Shown in pieces: positions 2,593-24,952 of a stretch of 64,000 bases of DNA (position 1 is its first letter; each line of letters starts with the position of its first letter). This DNA is from Nannocystaceae bacterium ST9. GTDB lineage: Bacteria > Myxococcota_A > Polyangia > Nannocystales > Nannocystaceae. The notes under the pieces were generated by a model. The model was given only the letters and a program-made list of their open reading frames with translations, made no database searches and was not told where the DNA came from. The position numbers and the translations under genes were made by a program. Where the stretch lies: contig JBLWFJ010000001.1 of NCBI GenBank assembly GCA_048320885.1, forward strand, positions 1,605,642 through 1,669,641, given 5' to 3'.

Positions 2593-3504
2593 CTACGCGT
2601 CGCCGAACTCGAACGCCGAGACCTGCACGCCCATGACCCGATCCTGAAACACCCGCCGACCCGACTCGCCGGCGGCCGCCCCCGCGGCGACCATCAGCGG
2701 GAGCAGGTGCTCTTCTCGCGGGTGGCAGCGGCGTCCGGCCGGCGCTCGCTCCCAGTCGGTCAGCGCCGCGTCACGACCGGAAGCATCGCCGCACGCCTCG
2801 GCCAGCCAGCCGTCGAATTGCTGCGAGAGCCCGAGCGAGGCCGGCCGACCGAAGCCACGCATGTCGTGGTAGCTCATGCCACTGCCGATGATCAGCACGC
2901 CCTCGTCGCGCAGCGGTGCGAGGGCCCGGCCGATCGCGAGGTGCTGGGCGGGATCGAGGCCAGCGACCAGCGAGAGCTGCAAGGTCGGGATCGTCGGCTC
3001 CGGGTAGGCGACCTTGAGCGGGACGAACACGCCGTGATCGAAGCCGCGCTGGCGCTCCTCGGCGCTGGCGAGCCCCGCCTCGCCGAGCAGACCTCGCACC
3101 CGGCTCGCCAGCTCGGGCGCGCCGGGTGCCGGCCACTCGAGCTGGTAGGTGTGCGGCGGAAACCCGTAGTAGTCGAAGAGCAGATCGGGCTGGGCCTGCG
3201 CGAGCACGGTCGCGACCGGCTGCTCCCAGTGGGCCGACACGACCAGCAGCGCGCGTGGATCGGCGTGCTCGCGGCCGACCGAGCGCAGCCACTCGGCCAT
3301 CGCGTTCCAGGTGTCGGCCGGACCCATCGTCCAGTCCATGAAGAAGCAGGGGCCGCCGCCGTGCGGGATGTACAAGGTCGGCTGGCGCTTGGTGGACGAC
3401 GACGAGGTGGTCATGTCGGAGGGTCCAGGGACCATGCAGCCTGCGAGCGTGGCCGTGCCGGCGGCGAGCATCGTGCGTCGCGAGTAGCCTTCGGCCGCGC
3501 TCAT
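2593..3504 (-). CDS. Extradiol ring-cleavage dioxygenase, class III / DODA (YgiD)-like, Tat-lipoprotein
   Basis: Motifs HGGGPCFF, SAHW, DHGVFVPL, IGSGMSYH are typical of 4,5-DOPA-dioxygenase/LigB-family enzymes. N-terminus RRTMLAAGTATLAGC is a twin-arginine signal with a lipobox. Confidence 0.8.
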   Translation of the reverse strand: MSAAEGYSRRTMLAAGTATLAGCMVPGPSDMTTSSSSTKRQPTLYIPHGGGPCFFMDWTMGPADTWNAMAEWLRSVGREHADPRALLVVSAHWEQPVATVLAQAQPDLLFDYYGFPPHTYQLEWPAPGAPELASRVRGLLGEAGLASAEERQRGFDHGVFVPLKVAYPEPTIPTLQLSLVAGLDPAQHLAIGRALAPLRDEGVLIIGSGMSYHDMRGFGRPASLGLSQQFDGWLAEACGDASGRDAALTDWERAPAGRRCHPREEHLLPLMVAAGAAAGESGRRVFQDRVMGVQVSAFEFGDA

Positions 3505-3580
3505 GGCTCGACCAGCGTGAGCCCGGACGTGTCACCGCGCAAGTCGAGACCGCCGATCGAGGCCGGCGCGGCCGGCTCGC

Positions 3581-4165
3581 TCAGCCCGAGACTCGATCGA
3601 ATTCGAGACGTCCGTCAGTCAGCGAGGGGAGCGTGAGCCGCGAAGGATCCCGCTCGACGAAACTCGCCGTCGCGCTGCGAATCGCAGCCCGTTCGTCGTC
3701 ACCGTACTCCCGTTCGTAGACGTCCTTCCACGTGGGTCGGGCGTCGCTGCCCTTCGGCCCGCGCGCCTCGTCGACCCCGGGATGCGCGAGCAGGCAGAGC
3801 AGCCAATTCTCGATGGCCCACGTGGGTATCGGCGTGGCCACTCGCTCACCAGGCAGCCGCGCCGACATGTGTCGGTTGCGAAGCGATTCATCCAACTGCT
3901 CTTTGCGCTTCCGATCGCCCTCGCCGTCGCCATCCACGATCGCGACCAAAGCCAAGTCGTGCTGATAGTTGGCGGCGCGCAGCGCCTTGACCTCGTCGGG
4001 ATAGTTGGCGAGCACCCACGCCGCCGCCGATCCCTTCCCCGCCGGAGCAGGCTTGGACCGAATGCGGCGAGCGTCGAACCCCTGGGCCACCAAGACGGCC
4101 CTCGCAAATCGCTCGGTCCGCGAGTCTTCGACCAAGAGGGTCACCCGGATGTTGCGATTACTCAT
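3581..4165 (-). CDS. Small TOPRIM-like protein (RloB/DUF4435-like), partner of the upstream ATPase
   Basis: Starts at internal ATG (MSNRNIRVTLLVEDSRTE). The ATG overlaps the ATPase stop in the sequence ATGAGTAA. It has a conserved acidic residue in LLVEDS and a DxD-like motif in IVDGDGEG, as in TOPRIM folds. Codon usage is atypical for this genome. Confidence 0.6.
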   Translation of the reverse strand: MSNRNIRVTLLVEDSRTERFARAVLVAQGFDARRIRSKPAPAGKGSAAAWVLANYPDEVKALRAANYQHDLALVAIVDGDGEGDRKRKEQLDESLRNRHMSARLPGERVATPIPTWAIENWLLCLLAHPGVDEARGPKGSDARPTWKDVYEREYGDDERAAIRSATASFVERDPSRLTLPSLTDGRLEFDRVSG

Positions 4166-5267
4166 TGTTCGAGAGCCCGCGGGCGATCTGTTCGGAGGGC
4201 GCGAGGCCGGACTCGCGGTCGAAGTCGGCCGGGCGAACTCGCGTGGGGCCACCATCGACGCGCGTGAACGAGAATGGCTGACTCGCCGCCATGTAATTGA
4301 CGACCTCTGGATGATGAGAGATCACGAACACCTGGCCGTGAGTCTGAAATGTGTCGCACAAGTTCACCAGCCAGGGCTGAATCTCGAGCAGACCGACATG
4401 GGCCTCCGGCTCGTCGAGCATCAAGCAGCCGTCTCGTGGGGTGGTCCCCTGAATCAACGAATACAGGACGATCAGCGCCCGCTGACCATCGGAGAGTTCG
4501 TCGAAGTCGACTTCGTACGTGACCCCGGATGTCTTCATGACCACGGTGAGATCGCGGTTTCGGCCATGCCGCCCCGAGCTGACCAACTTCAGGGATTGAA
4601 AGCCGTCGACTGCCGGTCGCAAGGCCCCCCAGAGCGGTTCCAACAGCTCGGGGTTCTCCTGAGAGAGATGCCGATACCAGGACGCGAAATTCTCCCCATT
4701 GCGATCGAGCGTCGTGTCCTCTCCAATGCTCGAGCTCTCGATGTTGCGCGCGTCCAGCCGAATCGACCAAACCTTGCGGATGAAGTCCCGCCATTGAATC
4801 AGATCGCGGGTCTCTTCCCGGACGTCGATGGACGCGAGAAACGATCGATTGCCACGAAATGCGAACGAGACCCCCTTGGTCCCATCGTTCCGGTGGAGGT
4901 GAACCTGCTCGTCCTCGAATGCGAACAATGTCTTCCCGTCGCGTACGACCTTCTCGCTCTCGATCATCGATCGCTCGGCGAGCACGTCGTGGCGAATCAC
5001 CAGTGTATAATGATAAAGGCCGCCGTCGATCTCGCACTCGAGCTCGATCCGCTGGCTCTCGCGCTTGTCCCAGCGGGTCCGGCTGCTGCTCGGAAATACC
5101 TCGTTCACGTCCATCTCGAAGGCCACGAGATCGACGACTGCTTCGACCGCGTCGAAGAGCGACGACTTGCCGGCGCCGTTGCTGCCGAGCAGGAGGTTGA
5201 TGCGTCCCGGCGCGAACTCGAAGTTCGTGAAGCAGCGGTAGTTGTCGATGGCGATGCGCTTGAACAC
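4158..5267 (-). CDS. ABC-type AAA ATPase (AAA_21/AAA_15-like, OLD/AbiL/PARIS-AriA-like)
   Basis: Walker A GSNGAGKSS, ABC signature-like LSDGQRALIVL, Walker B CLMLDEPEAHVG, H-loop ISHH. Many AT-ending codons (tat, cat, aca, att, ttt, caa, aat), unlike the genome's usual G/C-ending bias. Confidence 0.8.
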   Translation of the reverse strand: MFKRIAIDNYRCFTNFEFAPGRINLLLGSNGAGKSSLFDAVEAVVDLVAFEMDVNEVFPSSSRTRWDKRESQRIELECEIDGGLYHYTLVIRHDVLAERSMIESEKVVRDGKTLFAFEDEQVHLHRNDGTKGVSFAFRGNRSFLASIDVREETRDLIQWRDFIRKVWSIRLDARNIESSSIGEDTTLDRNGENFASWYRHLSQENPELLEPLWGALRPAVDGFQSLKLVSSGRHGRNRDLTVVMKTSGVTYEVDFDELSDGQRALIVLYSLIQGTTPRDGCLMLDEPEAHVGLLEIQPWLVNLCDTFQTHGQVFVISHHPEVVNYMAASQPFSFTRVDGGPTRVRPADFDRESGLAPSEQIARGLSNNE

Positions 5268-5322
5268 GGATCGATGCTCGCGCGAGAGTGTCGCGCGACC
5301 TCACGCGAAGCGCAAGCCTCGC

Positions 5323-6195
5323 TCAGCCCCAGCGGACCGGCAGGCCGTCGGTCAGCACGAAATCGTCGAAGTGCTTCTGCGCGGCGATCATCACGTTGAC
5401 CACGTCGCCGACGCTGGCGTCGTCGCCGACGTCGATGATCAGCGCGCCCTTGTTCGGCCACGCCTTCTTGATCTTGGTCAGCTCGGCCGCGAGCGCCTTC
5501 CAGCCGGTGCCCGACACCTCGGGGGCGAAGCGTGGGTGCGCGGCCTCGATCGTGAAGGTCTCGCCGGCGCCGAGCTTGACCCGCAGGCCGAGCACGTTGT
5601 CGCCGGGCGAGACTCGCAGGCCGCCGGGCGGCAGCAGATAGAAGGGCCGGGTTCGCAGGCCCGCGTTGCCGCCATTGATCAGCAGGGCGAGGTTGGGCGC
5701 GAGCCCGCCGGGCCGGCTCTCGGCGGCTGCGTAGGCCAGCTCGAGCACGGTGTGGGCCGGCACGCTGGCCTCGGCGCCGATCATCACGCGCGTCGGCAGC
5801 TCGATGTCGTAGGTCTGGTTCTCCTCCGAGAGCTGCAACCAGGCGTTGCGGAACCCGTTCCAGACCAGCTCCTTGCAGCCGCTCTTGCACTCGCGCGAGG
5901 CCGGCCCGGCCGGCAGCGCGCCGGCTTGCAGGTCCGCGATCTTCTGGTCGAAGATCGAGAATTGCTGGGGCGAGACGATCGCGTACATGCCCGGCTCGAC
6001 CGGCGCGCCGTTGGCCACCGGCAGCAGCTCGGAGCCGAAGATCGCGTTGATCTGGGTGAGGATCACGGTGTCGAGGCCCTGCAGGACCTCGGTCTGCGCC
6101 GGGGCGGCCGCGAGCGAGTCGGCGAGGCCATCCGATCCAGGGCCGACCAGCAGCGCGCCGATCAGGGGAATGCTCGACAAGACGTGCATGGCCAT
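5323..6195 (-). CDS. Secreted hypothetical protein with ExbD/TolR-like C-terminal motif
   Basis: Signal peptide MAMHVLSSIPLIGALLVG. C-terminal ALIIDVGDDASVGDVVNVMIAAQKHF resembles the ExbD/TolR periplasmic segment. Native high GC3. Lies 4 bp downstream of the lipoprotein gene. Confidence 0.5.
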   Translation of the reverse strand: MAMHVLSSIPLIGALLVGPGSDGLADSLAAAPAQTEVLQGLDTVILTQINAIFGSELLPVANGAPVEPGMYAIVSPQQFSIFDQKIADLQAGALPAGPASRECKSGCKELVWNGFRNAWLQLSEENQTYDIELPTRVMIGAEASVPAHTVLELAYAAAESRPGGLAPNLALLINGGNAGLRTRPFYLLPPGGLRVSPGDNVLGLRVKLGAGETFTIEAAHPRFAPEVSGTGWKALAAELTKIKKAWPNKGALIIDVGDDASVGDVVNVMIAAQKHFDDFVLTDGLPVRWG

Positions 6196-6199
6196 GCGC

Positions 6200-6994
6200 T
6201 CAGAACTCCTCGATGGCGACGGGGACCCAGGTGCTGTCGACGGTGCCTTCGCGGACGACCCCCAGCGAGGTCGAGCTGCCCATCGTGCGGCTGCGAATGC
6301 GGCCCTCGATCTGCTCTTCACTCGGCTCGGCGCCGCCCAGCCAGATCGGCAGCGTGGTCAGCATGCCGACCACGACCTGCCGCTCGTCCTCTTTGGTCTG
6401 CTTGGCGGTCGCGATCCAGACCTCGTAGGGATCGCCCTCGCAGACCACGTGAACCAGCCAACCTTCGTCGAGGCCCTTGGTCGCCTCCTTGGCCAGGCCC
6501 TCGACCACGCCCTGCATGTCGCTGCGCCACAGCCCGAGCGAGGTCAGCCGGGTCTCGACCCGCTTGACCAGGGTCGGCAGCAGCTCGTCGACCGGCGCGG
6601 CCGCGTCGGGCCGACACTCGGCCCCGCGCAGCGGCTCGCGGTAGCGAGCGGCCAGCTCGACGAAGCGATCCTGCACCGCATAGGGATCGCGGTGATGCTC
6701 GAGCTCGCGGCGCAGCGCCTGCAAGAGCGAGGTCGGCGAGCCGGTGCCCATCCAGTGCAGCAGCGCGAACGCGTCCCACGAGCCGTGCTTGTCGTCGGGC
6801 TGCACGCAGCCGCCACCGTCCGACTCCACGCAGTGGACGAACGAGAGCGCCGCGCGGCGAGCCGGCTCGGCCGGACCGACGGTCTGAGCCTCGGTCGTCT
6901 TGGTCTTGCAGCCTGCGAGCGAGGCACACGCGACCAGCAACATGCCGAAGGCCGAGCCGAGAGAGGTTCGAGTTAGCGAGGCGCCACTGTTCAT
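6200..6994 (-). CDS. Hypothetical lipoprotein
   Basis: Start MNSGASLTRTSLGSAFGMLLVACASLAGC carries a lipobox (LAGC). High GC3. The upstream portion of the listed 546-aa ORF is junk. Confidence 0.6.
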   Translation of the reverse strand: MNSGASLTRTSLGSAFGMLLVACASLAGCKTKTTEAQTVGPAEPARRAALSFVHCVESDGGGCVQPDDKHGSWDAFALLHWMGTGSPTSLLQALRRELEHHRDPYAVQDRFVELAARYREPLRGAECRPDAAAPVDELLPTLVKRVETRLTSLGLWRSDMQGVVEGLAKEATKGLDEGWLVHVVCEGDPYEVWIATAKQTKEDERQVVVGMLTTLPIWLGGAEPSEEQIEGRIRSRTMGSSTSLGVVREGTVDSTWVPVAIEEF

Positions 6995-7129: not shown

Positions 7130-8068
7130 ATGCGTCCCGTGCCCGCCAACAAGCACACCGTCCTCGCCCCGCCCTCGGAGCCTCGCTCGACCCTCTTGCC
7201 CGCCGCCCGGCCCGCCCGAGTCACGAGCGCGCAAGCGAGCCCCGCTTCGGTCGGCGCCGGACCCCAGCCGACCGACTGGTGGCGCTCGCCCGACGGCCGG
7301 GTCCGGCTGATCCACGGCGACAGCATGGAGGTACTCGCGGCCCTGCCCGAGCGCAGCGTCGACGTGATCTTCGCCGACCCGCCCTACTTCTTGAGCAACG
7401 GCGGAACCACCTGCCAAGCCGGCAAGCGAGTCAGCGTCGACAAGGGCGGCTGGGATCGCAGCCGCGGCGCCGAGGACAACCACGAGTTCAACCGCAGCTG
7501 GCTCGAGGCCTGCCAGCGGGTGCTGAGCGACGACGGGACCATCTGGGTCTCGGGCACCGCCCACGTGATCTTCTCGGTCGGCTACGCGATGCAGCAGCTC
7601 GGGTTCAAGCTGCTCAACGACGTGGTCTGGGAGAAGCCCAACCCGCCGCCCAACCTCTCGTGCCGCTACTTCACGCACAGCACCGAGCTGATCTTGTGGG
7701 CCGCCCGCGGGCGCAAGAGCAAGCATCACTTCGACTACGCCGCGATGAAGCAGCGCAACGGCAACAAGCAGATGAAGAACGTCTGGCGCTTCACCGCGCC
7801 GAGCAAGACCGAAAAGCAGCACGGCCGGCACCCGACCCAAAAGCCGCTCGGCCTGCTCGAACAGATCCTGCGCTCGAGCTGCCCGGCGGACGGGCGCGCG
7901 CTCGATCCCTTCAACGGCAGCGGCACGACCGGGGTCGCGGCCGCCAAGCTCGGCCTGCGCTACGTCGGCATCGAGCTCGACCCCGAGTACCTCGCGCTCA
8001 GCAAGCGGCGGCTGCTCGAGGCCGTGCCCGACTGGCAGCTCGAGCCGCGCGTGGCCGCGGTGGGCTGA
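7130..8068 (+). CDS. DNA methyltransferase (N6-adenine/N4-cytosine, N6_N4_Mtase family)
   Basis: DPPY motif (IFADPPYF), HPTQKP motif and a C-terminal SAM-binding FNGSGTTG. No adjacent restriction endonuclease, so it appears solitary. Confidence 0.85.
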   Translation: MRPVPANKHTVLAPPSEPRSTLLPAARPARVTSAQASPASVGAGPQPTDWWRSPDGRVRLIHGDSMEVLAALPERSVDVIFADPPYFLSNGGTTCQAGKRVSVDKGGWDRSRGAEDNHEFNRSWLEACQRVLSDDGTIWVSGTAHVIFSVGYAMQQLGFKLLNDVVWEKPNPPPNLSCRYFTHSTELILWAARGRKSKHHFDYAAMKQRNGNKQMKNVWRFTAPSKTEKQHGRHPTQKPLGLLEQILRSSCPADGRALDPFNGSGTTGVAAAKLGLRYVGIELDPEYLALSKRRLLEAVPDWQLEPRVAAVG

Positions 8069-8070
8069 AC

Positions 8071-8712
8071 GTGGCGACGTCCATCGAGATCGCCGAGCAC
8101 CCGCTGCTGCTGCTGGGTGGATTCGAAGCCGTCTTCCCGGCCCCGCTCGCCGAGCTGACCAGCCCGGCCGAGCTGCGTGCGCTGCTGAGTCTGGCCGCCG
8201 CGAGCCCGCTGCCGCCGACCGACGAGGCCATGCGCAAGCAGGTCCGCGAGCTGCTCCGGCACGGCGGGTTCAAGCCGAGCGGGCGCAGCAAGCCGGCGTC
8301 CGAATTCCTGCTGCGCGCCGCGTCGCAGGGCGAGCTCGGCTCGATCAACCTCGCGGTCGATCTGTGCAACGTCGCCTCGCTGCACTCGGGCCTGCCGATC
8401 AGCGTGGTCGATCGCGATCGCGTCGAGTCGCCGCTGAAGGTCGCGATCGCCGAGCCCGGATCGAGCTACGTGTTCAACGCCTCGGGTCAGACCATCGCCC
8501 TCGACGGCCTGCTCTGCCTGCACGACGCGGCCGGCCCCTGCGCCAACCCGGTCAAGGACAGCCAGCGGAGCAAGACCCACGCGGGCACGATCGCGACGAT
8601 CTGCGTGGTCTGGGGCTGCCGAGCGCTGGCCGAGCGCAGCGCCGCGACGACGAATTGGTATCGAGCGCTGCACGAGCGCTTCGGCGCGCAAGTCCGCGAC
8701 ATCGCCGGCTGA
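8071..8712 (+). CDS. B3/4 domain-containing protein
   Basis: GTG start 3 nt after the MTase stop. The sequence KPSGRSKPASEFLLRAASQGELGSINLAVDLCNVASLHSGLPISVVD is typical of B3/4 (PheT-like) domain proteins. Confidence 0.7.
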   Translation: MATSIEIAEHPLLLLGGFEAVFPAPLAELTSPAELRALLSLAAASPLPPTDEAMRKQVRELLRHGGFKPSGRSKPASEFLLRAASQGELGSINLAVDLCNVASLHSGLPISVVDRDRVESPLKVAIAEPGSSYVFNASGQTIALDGLLCLHDAAGPCANPVKDSQRSKTHAGTIATICVVWGCRALAERSAATTNWYRALHERFGAQVRDIAG

Positions 8713-8744
8713 GCCCGCGGCGAGCGGTGCTAACCTGGGCGCGG

Positions 8745-9404
8745 ATGAACTTCTTCGCCCACGCCCTGATCGCCGCGCGCCGCCGCGAAGAGCCAGCGTG
8801 GATCCTCGGCTCGATGCTGCCCGACCTCGCGAGCATGGCCGGCCTTCGCCTGCACGGCGTCGCCAAGCCCGGCCGCTTCAGCCCGCTGCTCGGCGAGGGC
8901 GTCGACTTCCATCACACCTGCGACGACGCCTTTCACGGCGCGCCGATCTTCGTCGAGCTGATGGACGGTGCCCACGCCGAGCTCGAGGCCCGCGGGCTGG
9001 GCTCGGGTCCGGCGATGGCGATCGGTCACGTCGGCGTCGAGCTGCTGCTCGACGGCTGCCTGGTCGCGCGCCACGGCGTGCCGATCTGCTACCGCGAAGC
9101 GATGGAGTTGGCCTCGATCGCCGGCGAAGATCTGAATTGGCGCGACGACAGCCACGAGCACCCGCAGCGCTGGCAGGCGCTGTGCGGGCGACTCCGCGGC
9201 GCGCCGGTGCCCGAGGCCTACGCCGATCCGGGCTTCGTCGCCGATCGGCTGATCCAGATCCTCGCGCGCCGTCCGATGCTGGCGGTCGAGCCGGGCAACG
9301 AGCCCGAGGTCCACGCCTGGGCCAAGCGCTGGGTGCCGAAGGTCGCCGCGCGCGAGCTGGCGCTGCTCGATCAGGTCGAAGACCGACTCGCTCGCGCACG
9401 CTGA
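8745..9404 (+). CDS. ACP phosphodiesterase-like protein (AcpH/DUF479-like)
   Basis: N-terminus MNFFAHALIA resembles AcpH MNFLAHLHLA. An HxHxxxD-like segment is present (VDFHHTCDD). The listed ORF has a junk R-rich N-terminal extension, so the call uses the internal ATG. Confidence 0.5.
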   Translation: MNFFAHALIAARRREEPAWILGSMLPDLASMAGLRLHGVAKPGRFSPLLGEGVDFHHTCDDAFHGAPIFVELMDGAHAELEARGLGSGPAMAIGHVGVELLLDGCLVARHGVPICYREAMELASIAGEDLNWRDDSHEHPQRWQALCGRLRGAPVPEAYADPGFVADRLIQILARRPMLAVEPGNEPEVHAWAKRWVPKVAARELALLDQVEDRLARAR

Positions 9405-9411
9405 GCCGAGC

Positions 9412-10623
9412 TCAATCCGAGAGCCCGAGCCGCCGCTCCCACACGCGAAACACCACCGTCGCGACCACGACCAGCATCGCCGCGAACGCGAAGGTGCCCG
9501 GGTAGTCGACGAGCATGACGACCGCCCCGAACATCGGCCCGCCGATCAGCAGGCCGAAGTCGAAGAGCGCGGTGAACATCGAGATCGCGCTGCCCCGCTC
9601 TTCGGGCCGCGCTCGCATGACGACCAGGGTCGACAAGATCGGGAACGCGTAGCCGTGGCCGATCCCACACAGCAGCCCGGCGAGGATCAGGTGCTCGGGC
9701 TCGCTGGCCAGGGCCATGACCACGAGCCCGGTCGCGCCGCTGAACAGCGCGGGGATCAGCACGCGGCGCAGGCCGAGCCGCTCGGGCACCCAGCCGAAGA
9801 ACGCACGCAGGATCGTGGCCGCGAGCGCGTAGGTCGCGAAGAAGCCGCCCATCGTGCCGAGCTCGGGCGCCTCGATCAGGTAGGTCTTCAAGAACGTGAA
9901 GTAGGCGGCCAGCCCGGTCGAGAACGCCAGGCCGACGAAGAACACCGAGCGCAGCTCCTTGGCCGCGACCGAGGTCCAAAACCCGCGCGCGGCCACGCTG
10001 CTGCGCTGGAGGGTCTCGGGCAGCGGGATCGTGATCAGCAGGCCGGCGCAGGCCGAGCCCAGGGCGATCCACAGCAAGTTCGAATAGTCGCCACCGACGA
10101 TCACGAGGTCGCCGAGCAGCCCGCCGATCGCCAGCGGCAGCATGCCGGAGATCCCGAACAGCGCGATGCCATGCGCCCGCCGCTCGGCCGGGACCAGGTC
10201 GGCGGCGATCGTGAACAGCACCGAGAAGAGCATCGCCTCGGCGGCGCCCTGGATCACCCGCACGCCCGCGACCATCAGCCAGACCGGCAGGCCGCCGCCG
10301 ATCGTCGAGGCGTCGAGCAGCACGAACGCGGCGGTCGCCAGCATGTGCACGCCCCCGCCGATCAACACGACGATCCGCCGGCCTCGCGTGTCCATCACCC
10401 GGCCGACCAGCGGGCGCGAGAGGATCGCCGACACGGCCATCGCGGCGAACAGCACCCCGATCAGCAGCTCGCCGGCGCCCCGGCCCTCGAGCCAGCCCGA
10501 GAGGTGCACGAAGCAGTAAAAGCCGATCCCGTGCAGGAAGTTGGCCGCCGCGGCCAGCACGAAGGGCAGGCTCCACAGCGACTTCCTGGCGGGCACGCTC
10601 GAGCCGGCGTCGGTCGCGAGCAT
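9412..10623 (-). CDS. MFS transporter
   Basis: About 12 predicted TM helices with a typical MFS loop motif (GRVMDTRGRR). Start at internal ATG MLATDAGSS. Confidence 0.8.
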   Translation of the reverse strand: MLATDAGSSVPARKSLWSLPFVLAAAANFLHGIGFYCFVHLSGWLEGRGAGELLIGVLFAAMAVSAILSRPLVGRVMDTRGRRIVVLIGGGVHMLATAAFVLLDASTIGGGLPVWLMVAGVRVIQGAAEAMLFSVLFTIAADLVPAERRAHGIALFGISGMLPLAIGGLLGDLVIVGGDYSNLLWIALGSACAGLLITIPLPETLQRSSVAARGFWTSVAAKELRSVFFVGLAFSTGLAAYFTFLKTYLIEAPELGTMGGFFATYALAATILRAFFGWVPERLGLRRVLIPALFSGATGLVVMALASEPEHLILAGLLCGIGHGYAFPILSTLVVMRARPEERGSAISMFTALFDFGLLIGGPMFGAVVMLVDYPGTFAFAAMLVVVATVVFRVWERRLGLSD

Positions 10624-10628
10624 CCCGC

Positions 10629-11900
10629 TCAGCTCTCTCGTTCGCGCATGCGCGTGCCCAGCATCAGCGCCAGCTTGACGTTGATCAGCGCGACCAGGCC
10701 CCCGAGCATCAAGGGCGCGCCGGGATCGATGTGCTCGAAGAGCGGGCCGGCGACCGCGGGGCCGCTGACCCGCGCGAGCGCCGACGACGACTCTTTCATG
10801 CCCATGTTCATGCCTTGGTTCTCGGCCGTCGACACCCGCGAGACCAAGGCCGAGATGGTCGCGGTCGTCAGCCCGTTGCCGCCCGCCATCAGCATGCCGC
10901 CGAGCCCGTAGCAGGCGAGCGCCGGCAGGCTGGCCCCGCCGTCGGCCGCGGTGGTCGCAAACCCGAGCAGCGCGGTCAGGTGGCCGACCCCGCCGATCGT
11001 CAGCAGCCCGAACCCGACCATGGTCAGGCCGATCGTCAAGGTCGTGGTCTCGCCGAATTTGCCGACCGCGCGACCGACCAGCAGGCCCTGGAAGATCACC
11101 ATGTTCACGCCGATGAAGGTCATGAAGATGCCGGTCTCGCGTCCACCCCAGCCGAACATGTGCTTGCTGAACAGCGGCAGCGTCGACTCCATGCCCGCGA
11201 ACGCGACGAAGAAGCAGAACGCGATCACGATCAGCCAGGCCATCGGCGTGCCCTGGACGCGGCGAGCCGCGTCGCGCATGCGCGGGAGCAAGGGGGGCTT
11301 GGGCGCCGCGTCGACGCGAGCCTGCGCCGCGCGATCGGGGAAGTGGGTCTCGGGCAGCCAGATCGCCGCCATCCCGAGGTTGAGCAGCGAGAGCAGGGCC
11401 GCCACGAAGAAGGGCAGCGAGGGCATGGCGTCGGTCGCGAGCAGCCCGCCGATCGCCGGGCCGAACACGAAGCCCATGCCCATCGCGGCGCCCATCATGC
11501 CCATGTACTTGGCTCGCTCCTTGGCCGGGACGAGGTCGGCGACGTAGGCGTGGGCGGTCGAGACGTTGGCCTTGCAGCAGCCCGCGACCACGCGAGCGGC
11601 GAACACCAGCCACAGCGCGTTGGCGAACCCGAGCACCAGGCTCGACGCGACCGAGCCGAAGATCGAAAACAGCATGATCGGTCGGCGACCGTGGCGATCG
11701 CTGAGCCGACCGAGCACCGGCGACATCACGAACTGCGCGGCCGAGAACGCGGTCGAGAGCAGCGTGACGGCGGTCGCCGAGGCGTCGAACGACTCCGCGT
11801 AGTAGGGGAGGATCGGCAAGATGATCCCGAACCCCGCGAGATCGAGGAACAAGGTCAGCGCCACCGTCGAGAGCGCCCGCCTACGTTCGCGCTCGGTCAT
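10629..11900 (-). CDS. MFS transporter (DHA1/tetracycline-efflux-like)
   Basis: MTERERRRALSTVALTLFLDLAGFGIILPILPYY followed by GRLSDRHGRRP motif A. 423 aa. Tandem with the upstream MFS gene. Confidence 0.8.
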   Translation of the reverse strand: MTERERRRALSTVALTLFLDLAGFGIILPILPYYAESFDASATAVTLLSTAFSAAQFVMSPVLGRLSDRHGRRPIMLFSIFGSVASSLVLGFANALWLVFAARVVAGCCKANVSTAHAYVADLVPAKERAKYMGMMGAAMGMGFVFGPAIGGLLATDAMPSLPFFVAALLSLLNLGMAAIWLPETHFPDRAAQARVDAAPKPPLLPRMRDAARRVQGTPMAWLIVIAFCFFVAFAGMESTLPLFSKHMFGWGGRETGIFMTFIGVNMVIFQGLLVGRAVGKFGETTTLTIGLTMVGFGLLTIGGVGHLTALLGFATTAADGGASLPALACYGLGGMLMAGGNGLTTATISALVSRVSTAENQGMNMGMKESSSALARVSGPAVAGPLFEHIDPGAPLMLGGLVALINVKLALMLGTRMRERES

Positions 11901-19055: not shown

Positions 19056-22000
19056 TCACGGCGCGGGCGCGAACATCCGCGCGAGCTTGGCCTCGACCGC
19101 GACTCGAACCGGGTGGCTGGCGTCGATCCGTTGAAGCAGGGCGCTCAGCTCGGGCAACACCTGGCTGCCGGCCATGACTTGTCCGGTGCCGAACAGACTG
19201 GCGACGTAGCCGGGGCCGGCCTGGACCTGCTCGAAGGGCAGGTCGGCGTCGCGGGCAGCCTCCCAGGCGTCGCGCGCCCAGACCAGCGCCTCGCTCGGCT
19301 GCTTGCGCGCGAACACGTCGAGCTCGGCGAGCAGGATCAGACTCGGGATCGTCCGCGGCGTTCGGCGCGAGCCGAAGAGCTGGGTCTCGGCGGCGATCGA
19401 CGCGTGCAGCAGGCCGTGCGCCTCGTCGACCCGGCCGCGATGCACGAGCAGGGTCGCGAGCGTGTGCATGGTCATGGTCACCTCGGCGTGCACGTCGGTC
19501 GCATGGATCTCGCGCTTGATCGCCAGGCTCTCGCGCAGCAGCGACTCGGCCTCGTCGAAGCGAGCTTGGCCGAGCAGGGCGCTGGCCAGGCCGTGCAGGG
19601 TCGAGGCGACGTCGGCGTGGCGACGGGTCGCGAAGATTCGAACTTGCAGCTCGAGGTTGGCGCGGTAGCAGGCCTCGGCCTCGTCGTACTTGCCCTGCGC
19701 GAGCAGGGCGTTGGCCAAGCCGTGCGCGACCGCGGCGAGCTCGGGATGATCGACCTGGCCGTAGGCTCGCTGCTTGATCGCCAGCGCCTCGCGGGCGAGC
19801 TGCTCGGCCTCGGGCGCCCGCCCGCGATGAAAGGCGAGGTTGGCCAGGCCGGCGAGGCCCGCCGCGATGTCGGCGTGCTCGCGCGAGCCGTGCACGCGCT
19901 CGAGGATTGCGATCGACTCGCGATAGGCGGCTTCGGCCCGGTCGTACTCGCCCGATCCAGACAGCGCGTTGGCGAGCCCGTGCAGGGACGAGGCGACATG
20001 CGGGTGCTCGCGGGTGCCGAACACCCGCTGCTTGACGACGATGCTCTGCTCGAACGCCGCGATCGCGTCGGCGTACTTGCCTTGGCAGTCGAGCACGTCG
20101 CCGAGCCCTCGCAGCACGGTCGCGAGCGAGGGGTGATCTTCGTCGCCGACCAGCGAGCGCAGGATCGCGGCGGCCTCGCGATAGTCGGCCTCGGCCTCGC
20201 CGAGCTCGCCGAGCTGAGCCAGCGTGTTGGCCAGGCCGTGCAGCGCGAGCGCGACCTCGGGGTGCGCGTGCCGACCGAAGCCCTGCTCGATCTTGGCGAT
20301 CGCCTCACGATAGTTGGTCTCGGCCTCGCGCAGCTTGCCTTGCCGCAGCTGGGCCGACGCGAGCCCGGCCAGCGCGATGCCGAAGTCGGGGCGAGCCTGC
20401 AGACCGAGGCGCTCTTCGATCGCCAGCGCCTGGCGATACTCGGCCTCGGCCTCGCCGTACTTGCCTTGCCCGAGCAGGATGTTGGCCAGACCGGCGTGCG
20501 AGATCGCCAGGTCGGCGGGGCTCTGCCCGGCCTCGCCGGCCAGCGCGATCGATCCGCGAGCGTGGACCTCGGCCTCGCGGTAGCTGCCCATCGACTGGGC
20601 CGCGGCGCCGCAGTGGTGCAGCCAGGTGTCGCGCTGCGCGAGCGGCCAGTCGACCTCGCGCAAGCCATCGAGGAACTCCTTGCGCAAGCGGTAGAGCCCG
20701 GCTTGGTGCATGGTCGACGAGATCGCGATCATCACCCGCTCGGCGCCCTCCCACTGCTCGGCGGCGAGGTAGTGGCCGAGCGCCTCCTGCAATCCGGCGA
20801 GGTCGCGCTCGAGCATGCCGCACTGCTCGCGATGTCGACCGAGCAGCGCGCGACCGGACTTGGTCCAGGCCGGGCGTCCGGCGAACTGCTTGCCGACCGA
20901 CTCGCGGACCAGCGAGTGCAGGGCCCACGCGTCCTCGCCCGCGAAGCGACCGAGCAGACCGAGCGCGGCCAGGCGGTCGTCGCCGCTGCCGAGCCGCTCG
21001 ATGATCGCCCGCGGGACCGGCCGCTGGATCGCCGAGCACTCGCCGAGCAGGGCGAGCTCGTCGGGCGCGAGACAGGCGATCAGGCTGCCGAGCGCGAGCC
21101 GCTGCTCGACCTTGGCCCCGAGCCCGGCCAGCGCGGGATCGAGGTAGGCCGCGCGCATGATCTCGACGTCGCCGTCTTCGTCGAGCGGCGGCGCGCCCGG
21201 GAGCTTGCGCAGGCTGATCAGGCCGTTGATCCAGTCGACCGTGCCGGGGTGACCGTCGATCCGCTCGGTCAACTGCTCGCGCAGCGGCTCGGGCAGGCGT
21301 TGAAGCGGGTGCTTCCACGCGGTCATGCGATAGATCTCGGCCTTGCTGCACGGCGGGATCGACTCCCAGCAGCCGCACTCGCCGGCCGGCAGGTGGCGCG
21401 AGGTCATCAGCAGGGTCGTGTCGCCCTCGATCTCGCGCGCGAGGCAGGCGAAGAACCCGACCAGCGCCTCGTCGCGCCACTCGACGCCGCGCTCGGAAGA
21501 CGCCGCGCTCGCCTGCATCGACTCGAGGTTGTCGAGGTAGAGCACCCCGCCGCGAGCCAGGCCGAGCAGGAGTCGAGCGAGCGCCTGCGGGCGATCCTCG
21601 GCCCGGTCGAGCGCCTCGAGCCGCGCGTCCCAGTCCGCGGGCTTGCGCGGATGCTTGCCGATCACGCGCCGAACCAGGCCGAGCAGCCAGACGAAGGGCG
21701 TGGTTCGAGTGGCCTGCTCGACGTAGTCGCCGATCGGCAGGGCGATCACGTCGCCGGCGTCCTCGCTGCAGATCAGCGCGAAGCGGGTCATGGTCGTGGT
21801 CTTGCCGAGCCCGCCGAGCCCGTGGAGCCCGAGCGCTCGCTCGCCTCGCTTGCGGAGCTTGCGAAGCCGCGCGAGCAGCCGGCGACGACCGATGAAGCCG
21901 TGCTCGAGCACCGGCAGGCCCTCGGCGCCGGCCAGCTCGATCCGCTCGGGTCGCAGCACGTCCTCGAGCTGCTTGGTCTGGCGCAGCTTGCCGGCGACCA

Positions 22001-23960
22001 GGTCGCGATCGGGCCCGCGATGATAGAGCGCGAGCATCGACCAGGCGAAGGGGTAGCGAACGAAGCCGAGCGGGGTGTCGAGCACCTCCTTGCTGCTCAG
22101 CCGCGCGCGACGAACGGCCTCGACGGTCCGCTCGGTCGCGACCAGCTCGCGAAACAACGCGCGATCGATCCGGGCGATCAAGACGTCGGGGATCGGCCCG
22201 AAGTAGCCGAGCACCTGCGGGATCCCGCGGCGATGAAGTTGAGCGGCGATCGAGACCTCGCGGGCCGAGGCCGCATTCGAAGCCACGTCGCCCTCGGAGG
22301 CCACGCCCACGCTCGCCCCGTGCCCACACGAGAGCCAGAACGCGGCCGGAAGGCGCGAGGCGGCGGCGGCCAGGCGATCGCAGACGCTGGCGATCTCGAT
22401 CGGCGCGGGCCCGCCGTCCTCGTCCTCGAACAAGAGCTCGCCCGGCGCACCGCGGCCCGAGAAATGCAGGATCGTCGGCCGCTCGATCGCCCGCACGGCC
22501 TCGACCAGATCGTCGAGCGTGCCGAGCTCGGTGAAGCGCACGTAGCCGCGCAGCGGATCGAGGGCGCGGGCGATCCGGTACGAGGCGGCCTCGAGATCCT
22601 GGCTCGAGCCCTCGTCGGTCTCGGGCGCGGCCACGTGCGCGACGATCCGCGGGACGGTCGAGTCCTCGGGCAGCGGCTGCGCGCCGGGGACCACGACCTC
22701 GCGGATCAGGTTGAGGCTGCCGTTGCCGACCGGGAACTCGCCACGCACGCAGACCAGCTCCCAGGGCAGCAGCAAGACCGCGTCGACCTCGGCCGGATCA
22801 CCGTCGACGCGCAGCGCGAGGCTGGCCGGCTCGCTCATCGCCGCCGACCCGATCAGCTCGACCAGCCGCGCGGCGGCCTTGCTCGGCAACACGCCGAACA
22901 GCCGCTCGCCGATCGCCCGCGCGCGGGTTCGAATCCCGGCCGCGAGCGCCTCGCTCTCCGAATCGAGCTCGCCGTGGCGGGTGCACGAGAGCCCGCGCGC
23001 GGCCAGGGCCTGCAGCTCGCCGAGTTCGACCAGCGAGAGCTTCGGCGGATCGATCTCGACCCGCTCGCCGAGCGCCTCGACGGTCCAGCGCGGCCCGGGT
23101 CGGATCACCAGCGCGAGCTCGCGGGCGCCGGCGATCACCACCTCGTCGGCCAGCGCCTCGAACCAGCGCGGCAGCGTGACGAAGTCGGGCAGCTCGACTC
23201 GCTGGATGTGCTTGAGCACCTCGGCGTAGCTGCGCCCGTCGGTCCACTTCAGCGCCTGCAAGGTCGCGCCCTCGCCCGGGCCGATCACCGCGCGCCACAG
23301 GTGGAGCAGGCGACGCTGCTCGGCCGGCAACTCCGAGGTCCAGCGCAGCAGCCGAGGATCTTGCAGCGAGCAGCCGACGAAGAGCACGCGATTTTGCCGG
23401 AGCAGCACCTCGAGCTCGTGGATCGCCAGCGGATGGCGGCGCTCGTAGAGCGAGTAGCTCTCGCCGGTCAGCACCGCCGAGGTCCAGTCGTCCCAGGTCC
23501 CGTGGATCGCCAGGTAGAGCGGCAGGCCCTCGCCGGCCAGGTGCAGGCCGCGGTCGAGCTGCGAGAAGCGATGCGGCGCGCCGATCATCTCGCAGGCGCG
23601 CCGCAGCAGCAGGTCGTAGCAAGTGTCGATGATCGCCTTGAAGCGGCCGGCGGCGATCAGCTTGGCGAGGTGGAAGTGCAGCGGGCCCGGCTGGGGCGTG
23701 CGGCCCTGCTTGCGAAACTCCTGCTCGAGGAAGCGATGCAGCTCGCCCTCGCCGAGGTTCTGCACGAAGTCGTCGATCCACGCGTAGGGATCGTCGGACG
23801 CGGGCGGCTGCCAGTTGTCGGCCTCCTTGCGGCGCAGCGCGTCGACCAGCGCCCACAGGGTCGGCAGCGGTGGGTCGGCTTGGCAGCTGGCGCCCGCGCC
23901 GAGCCAGAGGATCGGCCGGCTGTCGTTGCTGAACAGGCCGCGGATCTTCTCGACGCTCAC
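19056..23960 (-). CDS. SIR2 - CHAT (caspase-like) - NB-ARC/STAND NTPase - TPR multidomain protein (NLR/Avs-like), about 1634 aa
   Basis: SIR2-like N-terminus: ILWLGAGAS, TCYD, VLFVGCSLQDPRLLRW. CHAT: LPWELV, ILHFSGRG, FWLSCGHGAS, LGYFGPIPD. P-loop GLHGLGGLGKTTT plus Walker B VLYLDNLE. About 10 TPR_12-type repeats (HPxVAxxLxxLAxxLxxQGKYxEAE). Start set at GTG 23960 (VSVEKIRGLFS) with GAGG 4 nt upstream; the upstream 64 codons of the listed ORF are R-rich junk. Confidence 0.85.
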   Translation of the reverse strand: MSVEKIRGLFSNDSRPILWLGAGASCQADPPLPTLWALVDALRRKEADNWQPPASDDPYAWIDDFVQNLGEGELHRFLEQEFRKQGRTPQPGPLHFHLAKLIAAGRFKAIIDTCYDLLLRRACEMIGAPHRFSQLDRGLHLAGEGLPLYLAIHGTWDDWTSAVLTGESYSLYERRHPLAIHELEVLLRQNRVLFVGCSLQDPRLLRWTSELPAEQRRLLHLWRAVIGPGEGATLQALKWTDGRSYAEVLKHIQRVELPDFVTLPRWFEALADEVVIAGARELALVIRPGPRWTVEALGERVEIDPPKLSLVELGELQALAARGLSCTRHGELDSESEALAAGIRTRARAIGERLFGVLPSKAAARLVELIGSAAMSEPASLALRVDGDPAEVDAVLLLPWELVCVRGEFPVGNGSLNLIREVVVPGAQPLPEDSTVPRIVAHVAAPETDEGSSQDLEAASYRIARALDPLRGYVRFTELGTLDDLVEAVRAIERPTILHFSGRGAPGELLFEDEDGGPAPIEIASVCDRLAAAASRLPAAFWLSCGHGASVGVASEGDVASNAASAREVSIAAQLHRRGIPQVLGYFGPIPDVLIARIDRALFRELVATERTVEAVRRARLSSKEVLDTPLGFVRYPFAWSMLALYHRGPDRDLVAGKLRQTKQLEDVLRPERIELAGAEGLPVLEHGFIGRRRLLARLRKLRKRGERALGLHGLGGLGKTTTMTRFALICSEDAGDVIALPIGDYVEQATRTTPFVWLLGLVRRVIGKHPRKPADWDARLEALDRAEDRPQALARLLLGLARGGVLYLDNLESMQASAASSERGVEWRDEALVGFFACLAREIEGDTTLLMTSRHLPAGECGCWESIPPCSKAEIYRMTAWKHPLQRLPEPLREQLTERIDGHPGTVDWINGLISLRKLPGAPPLDEDGDVEIMRAAYLDPALAGLGAKVEQRLALGSLIACLAPDELALLGECSAIQRPVPRAIIERLGSGDDRLAALGLLGRFAGEDAWALHSLVRESVGKQFAGRPAWTKSGRALLGRHREQCGMLERDLAGLQEALGHYLAAEQWEGAERVMIAISSTMHQAGLYRLRKEFLDGLREVDWPLAQRDTWLHHCGAAAQSMGSYREAEVHARGSIALAGEAGQSPADLAISHAGLANILLGQGKYGEAEAEYRQALAIEERLGLQARPDFGIALAGLASAQLRQGKLREAETNYREAIAKIEQGFGRHAHPEVALALHGLANTLAQLGELGEAEADYREAAAILRSLVGDEDHPSLATVLRGLGDVLDCQGKYADAIAAFEQSIVVKQRVFGTREHPHVASSLHGLANALSGSGEYDRAEAAYRESIAILERVHGSREHADIAAGLAGLANLAFHRGRAPEAEQLAREALAIKQRAYGQVDHPELAAVAHGLANALLAQGKYDEAEACYRANLELQVRIFATRRHADVASTLHGLASALLGQARFDEAESLLRESLAIKREIHATDVHAEVTMTMHTLATLLVHRGRVDEAHGLLHASIAAETQLFGSRRTPRTIPSLILLAELDVFARKQPSEALVWARDAWEAARDADLPFEQVQAGPGYVASLFGTGQVMAGSQVLPELSALLQRIDASHPVRVAVEAKLARMFAPAP

Positions 23961-24001
23961 GCCTCGATCGTAGCGCCCGGTGGGTTGGTTACGATGCGCG
24001 A

Positions 24002-24952
24002 GTGAGCGTCGATCGTCGGACCTGGCTCGCGGGTGTGTCGACCACGATCGGCTGCTTGGCCTGCGAACGCGCGGCTCCGCGGACGGCGAGCGAACGCGAG
24101 CCGACTCCGAGTGAGGATCGCGAGCCTTTGCCACCCGGCCACGAACCCCCACCGTCGGGTCTGCCGATCGGCGACGAGCCTGGCCAGGATCTCGCGAGCT
24201 TCCTCACCGAGCCCCGCCGCCCGATCACGGCCGAGCGGCGCACGCTCGAGCTCTTGCCGATCGGCGAGTACCCGCGCGGCTTCGTCGTCGAGTACGAGCG
24301 CGTGCACCTGGTCCGCAGCCCCGAGCTCGAGCTGCTGCGTCGCTTCGCCAGCGCGTGGTTCGGCCTGCCGGTGCGGGTCGCCGCGGCGCTCTCCGACGAG
24401 CTGCTCGAGACCCAGGCCCCCCAGCGCGAGTTCGAAGGTCGTCGGCAGTTCGACGCCGAGGCGCTGCTCGGCACGCTCGCCCCGCTGCGATCACCCGACG
24501 CCCACTCGCTGCTCGGGTTGACGCTCGAGGATCTCTGGTCGCCCTCGCTCGAAGGTCAGTGGGTGTTCGGGCTGGCGGCGGTCGAGCGCGGGCTGGCGAT
24601 CCACAGCATGCTCCGCTACGACCCCGGCCTGCGCAGCGCCGACGAGCGCCCACCGGACTTCGAGCGAATCATCCGCGATCGTGGCTTGCGGGTGCTGGTC
24701 CACGAGCTCGGTCACCTGCTGGGCATCCGTCATTGCGTGCACTTTTGTTGCGTGATGAATCCTACTGCGGGGCTCGCCGACCTCGATCGCCTGCCCTTGC
24801 GACTATGCCCAATCTGTCTCGACAAGCTGAACGCGGCGACCGGCGTCGATCGACTCGCTCGCGCGCTCGCGCTGCGAGACCTCTACGCCGAACTCGGGAT
24901 GATCGTGGAGCGCGACTGGATGAATGCACGAATCGCCGAAGCGACTCCATGA
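24002..24952 (+). CDS. Archaemetzincin-like zinc metalloprotease (peptidase M54-like), Tat-lipoprotein
   Basis: HELGHLLGIRHCVHFCCVMN...LCPICLD matches the archaemetzincin HExxHxxGxxHC...C...CxxC signature. N-terminus DRRTWLAGVSTTIGC is a Tat motif with a lipobox. Divergent from the STAND gene. Confidence 0.75.
   Translation: MSVDRRTWLAGVSTTIGCLACERAAPRTASEREPTPSEDREPLPPGHEPPPSGLPIGDEPGQDLASFLTEPRRPITAERRTLELLPIGEYPRGFVVEYERVHLVRSPELELLRRFASAWFGLPVRVAAALSDELLETQAPQREFEGRRQFDAEALLGTLAPLRSPDAHSLLGLTLEDLWSPSLEGQWVFGLAAVERGLAIHSMLRYDPGLRSADERPPDFERIIRDRGLRVLVHELGHLLGIRHCVHFCCVMNPTAGLADLDRLPLRLCPICLDKLNAATGVDRLARALALRDLYAELGMIVERDWMNARIAEATP

Follow-up and report, generated by a model that had tools for sequence, protein, structure and literature searches.

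A two-gene ABC ATPase and Toprim-like cassette in a Nannocystaceae bacterium, probably horizontally acquired and of the HEC-01 / Mad3-Mad4 type

The stretch of DNA analyzed in this study (the window) covers 64,000 nucleotides (nt) of Nannocystaceae bacterium ST9 (GenBank assembly GCA_048320885.1, contig JBLWFJ010000001.1, positions 1,605,642 to 1,669,641) and contains a compact cassette of two genes, encoding an ATP-binding cassette (ABC) type ATPase and a small Toprim-like protein (Table 1). An original prediction, made from the sequence alone, had given the positions of both open reading frames (ORFs), their sizes in amino acids (aa), and the overlapping stop and start codons ATGAGTAA, all of which was confirmed in the sequence; both ORFs are on the minus strand. 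The ATG of the small gene (4165-4163) overlaps the TAA of the ATPase gene (4160-4158), and, as read from this arrangement, the two genes are translationally coupled. A second ATG further upstream would extend the small gene to an ORF of 224 aa; this start was rejected, and the 194-aa start is the correct one, because every homologue in the alignment begins there. The public annotation of the small gene in Nannocystaceae bacterium ST9 (P0001, 144 aa) is N-terminally truncated, its first 50 residues, including the invariant E13 and D14, being gone. The ATPase is 100% identical to the public entry "AAA family ATPase" of the same bacterium. Judged by their sequences, both genes are full length, and the ATPase motifs as well as the Toprim-type acidic residues E13, D78, D80, and E119 are intact.

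Table 1. Features of the cassette and of its borders (positions of the window)
Feature	Position	Strand	Basis
ABC-type ATPase (AAA_21/AAA_15, HEC-01A-like), 369 aa, GTG start	4158..5267	-	ORF list and Pfam/PADLOC matches
Small Toprim-like protein, 194 aa, distant relative of DUF3226/DUF4276/HEC-01B, predicted metal-dependent nuclease effector	3581..4165	-	
Start/stop overlap of 8 nt, ATGAGTAA, predicted translational coupling	4158..4165	-	Read from sequence
Spacer of 55 nt from the native ExbD-like gene to the start of the ATPase; marks where the low-GC segment has its upstream edge	5268..5322	-	
Direct repeat, copy 1, CTCGCTCAGCCCGAG, overlying the small gene's stop codon; candidate insertion junction	3576..3590	.	
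Direct repeat, copy 2, CTCGCTCAGCCCCAG, overlying the upstream ExbD-like gene's stop codon; candidate insertion junction	5318..5332	.	

The motifs quoted for the ATPase in the original prediction, namely Walker A GSNGAGKSS, the signature LSDGQRALIVL, Walker B LMLDEPEAHVG, and ISHH, are all present. Among 32 homologues the invariant residues are G28, N30, G31, G33, and K34 of Walker A, the Q-loop candidate Q72, S259 and G261 of the signature, and D285 and E286 of Walker B, while H318 of the H-loop is nearly so. Two Pfam models pass their cut-offs (AAA_21, 52.4 bits versus 27; AAA_15, 34 bits versus 32.1), and SMC_N stays slightly below its own (39.6 bits versus 40). Models of RecF, Rad50, and transporters match the first ~45 residues around Walker A, far under curated cut-offs (for RecF, 33.7 versus 172). 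Thus, a grouping with transport or repair ABC proteins, named beforehand as an outcome that would speak against the original prediction, was not observed: by sequence, the ATPase is of the AAA_21/AAA_15 type, that is, of the OLD-like clade, and is neither a transporter nor RecF.

Within PADLOC-DB the ATPase is matched best by PDC-M25A (2e-24), by HEC-01A (2.7e-24, near full length), and by mad3 (2e-20). The best HEC-01A model, PDLC04178, aligns ATPase residues 3-349 with profile positions 10-358 of 399, and five more HEC-01A models match at 1e-16 or lower. The AriA (2e-15) and AbiLi (1.4e-14) models rank lower, and those of GajA reach E values of just 1e-9 to 1e-11 across the P-loop at the N terminus. 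More than 1600 homologues of the ATPase were found at E ≤ 1e-10, mostly of 365-375 aa.

The small protein carries both motifs from which a Toprim-type nuclease had been proposed, LLVEDS (E13, D14) and IVDGDGEG (D78-G79-D80). All five of these residues are invariant in its 12 closest relatives; among 112 diverse family members, E13, D80, E119, and W121 are invariant, and D14, D78, P41, G45, and R63 are among the residues conserved in at least 90%. A word-indexed search with the small protein yielded only these 12 relatives, and a profile built from them and run against 1.84 billion cluster representatives (clusters at 50% identity) retrieved 1542 proteins at E ≤ 1e-3, 1126 of them at E ≤ 1e-10, nearly all 170-195 aa long. 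The partner is thus of typical size for its family, contrary to the earlier remark that 194 aa is unusually small, and the HEC-01B and DUF4276 profiles have similar lengths of 192-219 positions. Single-sequence scans of the small protein with the hidden Markov models (HMMs) of Pfam, PADLOC, and NCBIfam gave no usable match, PF13707 and PF14491, for which a search had been suggested, included; the sole match, to a HAD family, is at chance level (E 0.034). As the profile has 1542 matches, yet none of the libraries models the query, the family is large but unmodelled.

Links of this family to known ones come from its members. DUF3226 matches 22 of the 112 (best scores 26.9 and 25.9 bits, cut-off 27), DUF4276 matches 13 (best 14.8 bits, cut-off 30.2), and RloB two (best 0.0026). 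All DUF3226 and DUF4276 scores are at or under the gathering cut-off, and the query lacks such matches altogether; in effect, current Pfam does not cover the family. The label "DUF4276" is attached to two members in UniRef. Among the PADLOC models, HEC-01B matches up to 37 members (best 2.9e-8), mad4 matches 12, AbiLii (best 0.0097) and PDC-M25B match three each, and PDC-M38B and PDC-M31B weakly match individual members. The closest relatives, 45-55% identical to the query, match HEC-01B colinearly with E values from 6e-4 to 0.05, and the query has no match to the HEC-01B models at E ≤ 1.

The AlphaFold2 model of the small protein, computed from the 112-sequence alignment, has a mean predicted local distance difference test score (pLDDT) of 95.4 and a predicted template modelling score (pTM) of 0.91. 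The predicted order of elements is strand β1 (7-12), E13, a helix, β2, a helix, β3 (71-75), D78-G-D80, a helix, and a short strand, followed by a helix with E119 and W121 and a helical C-terminal region. E13 after β1 and D78-G-D80 after β3 are predicted to occupy the positions of the Toprim glutamate and DxD motif, so that the lack of a Toprim fold, the other outcome that would have spoken against the original prediction, is not what the model suggests. A Foldseek search of the Protein Data Bank (PDB) with an earlier, weaker model gave no significant match, Bp OLD ranking first. Searches of PDB sequences gave only chance matches for profile A2 and, in a phmmer search with the DUF3226-like member P0368, did not retrieve PH0156 (PDB 2P62), which we take to be the representative of DUF3226 (PF11536). 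Neither search thus yielded a residue-by-residue alignment with a Toprim protein of solved structure. We consider the small protein Toprim-like on the basis of motif placement, family links, and predicted fold together, not of the fold alone. Combined with the class of the ATPase, this backs the general reading of the original prediction, in which an ABC ATPase with a small Toprim-like partner makes up a split OLD-like system.

The closest catalogued relatives of the pair, as judged by profile matches, are the HEC-01 and PDC-M25 candidates of PADLOC and the Mad3/Mad4 pair, and not PARIS and AbiL, to which it had been likened. HEC-01 (Hma-embedded candidate 01) consists of an ABC ATPase (HEC-01A) and a TOPRIM protein (HEC-01B) located within Hma systems and having an OLD-like conserved metal site (Payne et al., bioRxiv 10.1101/2024.01.29.577857). 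Our cassette shares with it the order of genes, ATPase first and small Toprim-like protein second, the match of the ATPase to HEC-01A, and the colinear matches of the small protein's relatives to HEC-01B; moreover, related pairs occur both embedded in larger systems (L001/L002, L027; locus handles of our collection, described below) and solo (the window, L004, L030). It differs in that the window protein has no HEC-01B match, the cassette is solo, and PDC-M25A fits the ATPase equally well. Since the small protein matches no HEC-01B model, PADLOC-DB 2.0.0 would probably miss this locus.

The Mad3/Mad4 pair of the MADS system has the same design, an ABC ATPase followed by a small Toprim protein of the DUF4276 type (PF14103); DUF4276, including Mad4, and RloB have been assigned to the Toprim superfamily (PMC12065111). 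The ATPase scores 55.4 bits with the NCBIfam MAD3 model (NF047739), far from the cut-off of 420, and is not an equivalog, and no MADS-like genes adjoin the cassette, its neighbours being the LigB-type, ExbD-like, lipoprotein, and N6_N4 methylase genes. The N6_N4 DNA methyltransferase gene (7130-8068, plus strand; Pfam E 1e-54), about 1.9 kb away, was considered as a further component, by comparison with MADS and locus L007, and rejected: it has a native GC content at third codon positions (GC3) of 0.946, lies on the opposite strand with two genes in between, and resembles the L007 methylase at motif level only. This methylase thus probably does not belong to the system.

PARIS consists of the ABC ATPase AriA and the DUF4435 Toprim protein AriB (PMC11464382). 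AriB is of ~300 aa and contains DUF4435, compared with the 194 aa of the window protein, and AriA is of ~55 kDa, compared with the 369-aa ATPase. No match to DUF4435 (PF14491) or AriB was found for the query or among the families listed for the 112 relatives, and the AriA match is in effect that of the generic AAA_21 profile, covering the same 304 positions. AbiL has a similar two-gene design with a Toprim-superfamily partner, the RloB-like AbiLii, but the AbiLi match is weaker, and the AbiLii and RloB matches are marginal, in two or three of the 112 relatives, and absent for the query. In OLD proteins of classes 1 and 2 (P2 Old, Ts OLD 6P74, Bp OLD 6NK8) and in GajA of Gabija, the two domains are fused, whereas they are encoded by two ORFs here; neither window protein matches the Pfam family Toprim_OLD, and no GajB/UvrD-like helicase gene, as in Gabija and class 2 OLD systems, adjoins the cassette. 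Thus, by these comparisons, the pair is not PARIS, AbiL, a fused OLD or Gabija protein, or MADS proper, and we suggest a distant relationship to HEC-01 and Mad3-Mad4, along with a similar mode of action.

Loci related to the cassette were gathered with alignment A1, and 26 of them (denoted L001, L002, and so on) were fetched. The ATPase gene is located directly upstream of the small gene in 25; in L021 the small gene is present only as a fragment. Overlaps of 8-11 nt between the two genes are annotated in L001, L004, L007, and L009, and, across 18 distinct loci, the identity of the ATPase to its window counterpart co-varies with that of the small protein (r = 0.93). The taxonomic spread of the pair is patchy and crosses several bacterial phyla. 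Its hosts belong to Pseudomonadota, Myxococcota, Nitrospirota, Acidobacteriota, and Acidimicrobiia, with many Cyanobacteria in addition.

The genomic contexts of these pairs are of two kinds, embedded and solo. In L027 the pair is embedded, flanked by a DruE-like helicase (2.4e-101) and by an SNF2 helicase resembling DpdE/DrmD/HmaA (7.9e-265), together with a DrmMI-like methylase (7e-63) and an LmuB-like protein, and L001/L002 have the same layout. L028 is a multi-system defence island; a second, different AAA_21 ATPase of 373 aa, followed by a 305-aa protein without a Pfam match (682-2728), adjoins an SNF2 helicase and an MmeI-like methylase there and may be another cassette of an ABC ATPase and its partner. 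In L007 the pair is located near an N6_N4 methylase, a recombinase, an 881-aa protein (3438-6083), and a 338-aa protein with a weak match to the PLD domain (PLDc_2; 8040-9056). The last two flank the pair and have no PADLOC match, and they may belong to an uncharacterized methylase-associated cluster. Solo pairs among housekeeping neighbours are found in the window, L004, and L030. In the last of these, a metagenome-assembled genome of Pyrinomonadaceae, copies of a palindromic motif, AACGGGACA ... TGTCCCGTT, flank the pair on both sides (9865-9900 and 11714-11825) and may be a repetitive extragenic palindromic (REP)-like element or a mobility scar. Finally, in Enhygromyxa salina, of a related Nannocystaceae genus (PVNL01000130.1; L029, 10001-11152), an ATPase 62% identical to ours lacks the small Toprim-like partner and is directly followed by a GAF-domain gene on the opposite strand; it is an orphan or the remnant of a decayed cassette.

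In the window, the cassette is located between the ExbD-like gene (5323-6321) and a gene for a LigB-type dioxygenase (2593-3504), all on the minus strand, and it is solo, the other nearby genes being those for a lipoprotein and the N6_N4 methylase. Its codon usage is foreign, as had been proposed: in the correct frame, GC3 is 0.797 for the ATPase gene and 0.785 for the small gene, compared with 0.895-0.946 for neighbouring genes, and the GC content is ~0.60 over 4200-5200, compared with 0.70-0.75 in the flanks. The low-GC3 cassette is exactly bracketed by the two copies of a direct repeat, 1742 bp apart, each across a stop codon; the ExbD-like gene, like the small gene, ends in GGC TGA GCGAG. 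No exact direct repeat in 3350-5500 is longer than the 12-mer CTCGCTCAGCCC, which extends to 15 nt with one mismatch; the sequence considered as a candidate target duplication was GGGCTGAGCGAG. In a post hoc test, none of 2000 random Markov-1 sequences had a repeat of at least 12 nt at both stop codons. The terminal "SG" of the small protein is not common to its homologues, which fits a junction within the last codons of the gene. The repeat resembles a duplicated target site or a stretch of microhomology at the junction, and, together with the dip in GC and GC3, it supports horizontal acquisition of the cassette. Of the proposed insertion at the 3' end of a native operon, the foreign insertion is therefore retained, but not the placement, as the cassette lies between two co-directional native genes. 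No tRNA gene that could serve as an integration landmark was found within 20 kb, and no sigma-70-like promoter was found in the 55-nt spacer by a scan that, like the terminator scan, is uninformative for a myxobacterium.

Taken together, these observations make it probable that the pair is a horizontally acquired two-gene cassette of an ABC ATPase and a stand-alone Toprim protein, with the architecture of HEC-01 and Mad3-Mad4. It is a divergent, uncatalogued member of this candidate class and no new kind of system. A role in defence is suggested by the relatives, which repeatedly sit inside defence clusters. By analogy with OLD, Gabija, and PARIS, an oligomer of the ATPase could serve as sensor and regulator, binding the small nuclease and holding or positioning it. 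A cue from a phage or from foreign DNA, coupled to ATP binding or hydrolysis, would then activate or release the Toprim effector, which would cut nucleic acid by two-metal catalysis and stop the infection; its target could be DNA, by the example of OLD and Gabija, or tRNA, which is cleaved by AriB in PARIS, a system that responds to anti-restriction proteins (Ocr).

Several points weigh against this interpretation. No member of this subfamily is known from experiments to give defence, and the one HEC-01 representative tried in Escherichia coli protected against none of the phages tested (10.1101/2024.01.29.577857). No defence genes are adjacent to the pair in the window, in L004, or in L030. 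The small protein as a single sequence is recognized by none of the libraries, and the link to HEC-01B, DUF3226, and DUF4276 is weak, as it comes from weak or sub-threshold matches of its relatives. In the plasmid and phage collections, tblastn with the small protein found no relatives; those of the ATPase were only 23%-identical genes of cyanobacterial plasmids, with uninformative neighbours.

It is possible, though we put this forward tentatively, that such pairs are either autonomous defence systems, with a trigger and a target of their own distinct from those of PARIS, Gabija, and OLD, or portable nuclease modules recruited by Hma, DISARM-like, and MADS systems against unmethylated DNA. 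A portable module would explain the frequent embedding in helicase and methylase systems, as well as the tolerance of mad5 loss only when mad2 or mad3 is also lost. The main rival explanation is rather doubtful: the pair would be non-autonomous, an accessory nuclease of a helicase/methylase system (Hma, DISARM-like, or MADS) that cuts unmethylated DNA, and the solo copy would be stranded, functionless, or repurposed. The relatives embedded among helicase, SNF2, and methylase genes, or located beside a methylase as in L007, agree with it, as does the lack of defence by HEC-01 on its own. In MADS, moreover, deletion of mad3 or mad4 lowers defence, and mad5 deletion was achieved only alongside loss of mad2 or mad3 (bioRxiv 10.1101/2023.03.30.534895). 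The partnerless ATPase of E. salina indicates that decay of such cassettes happens. Against this explanation, solo pairs that are intact have turned up repeatedly in genomes unrelated to each other (the window, L004, L009, and L030), all catalytic residues of the window pair are intact, and the nearby methylase, native in GC3, is unrelated to that of L007.

The remaining explanations appear improbable to different degrees. A compact cassette with overlapping genes that has been transferred horizontally and occurs in scattered surroundings could be a selfish, toxin-antitoxin-like addiction module serving its own maintenance only, in which the ATPase would regulate a toxin, the Toprim protein, and the Pfam text for AAA_21 indeed reads "putative AbiEii toxin, Type IV TA system"; this is improbable, since the pair was not found in the plasmid and phage collections searched and its recurrent placement in defence clusters points to defence. 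Somewhat less probable still is that the small protein is no nuclease at all, its generic flavodoxin-like or Rossmannoid fold serving for ligand binding or as an adaptor of the ATPase and its acidic residues binding metal or nucleotide for regulation. Against this, the pattern of a glutamate after β1 and DxD after β3 is invariant across the family, the alignments with OLD and PH0156 are longer (139-159 versus 93-118 residues) and of higher identity (16-17% versus 7-12%), and relatives match models of the Toprim superfamily. We find least credible a housekeeping pair for DNA repair or RNA processing, that is, a RecF/Rad50/SbcC-like ATPase with an RNase M5-like Toprim protein. The weak matches of the N-terminal P-loop region to RecF, Rad50, and SMC, with SMC_N close to its cut-off, could be read in this way, but the RecF, Rad50, and SMC matches are confined to ~45 residues at Walker A, with scores that fall far short of curated cut-offs, and the patchy taxonomy, the foreign codon signature, and the defence-cluster context of the relatives do not fit a housekeeping role.

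The window contains one more gene of possible relevance to antiviral defence, ~15 kb from the cassette. The ORF at 19056-24152 (minus strand) encodes a protein of 1698 aa with a SIR2_2 domain, a weak CHAT match, an AAA_16 (STAND-type NTPase) match just under its Pfam cut-off, and many TPR repeats. It resembles the Avs/NLR-like antiviral STAND proteins with a SIR2 effector.

Pairs that combine an ABC ATPase with a Toprim protein are among the most widespread effector designs of bacterial immunity, and mechanisms are known only for the OLD, Gabija, and PARIS branches. The branch to which the window locus belongs comprises at least 1500 clusters at 50% identity, in Myxococcota, Pseudomonadota, Acidobacteriota, Nitrospirota, Actinomycetota, and Cyanobacteria, and its predicted nuclease partner goes unrecognized by the libraries searched (Pfam, NCBIfam, and PADLOC). 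Conceptually, the locus adds one more member to a known class and no new mechanism. An HMM built from alignment A2 would allow defence-annotation tools to detect such loci, and the solo copies, like that of Nannocystaceae bacterium ST9, offer a clean test of whether HEC-01-type cassettes act alone.

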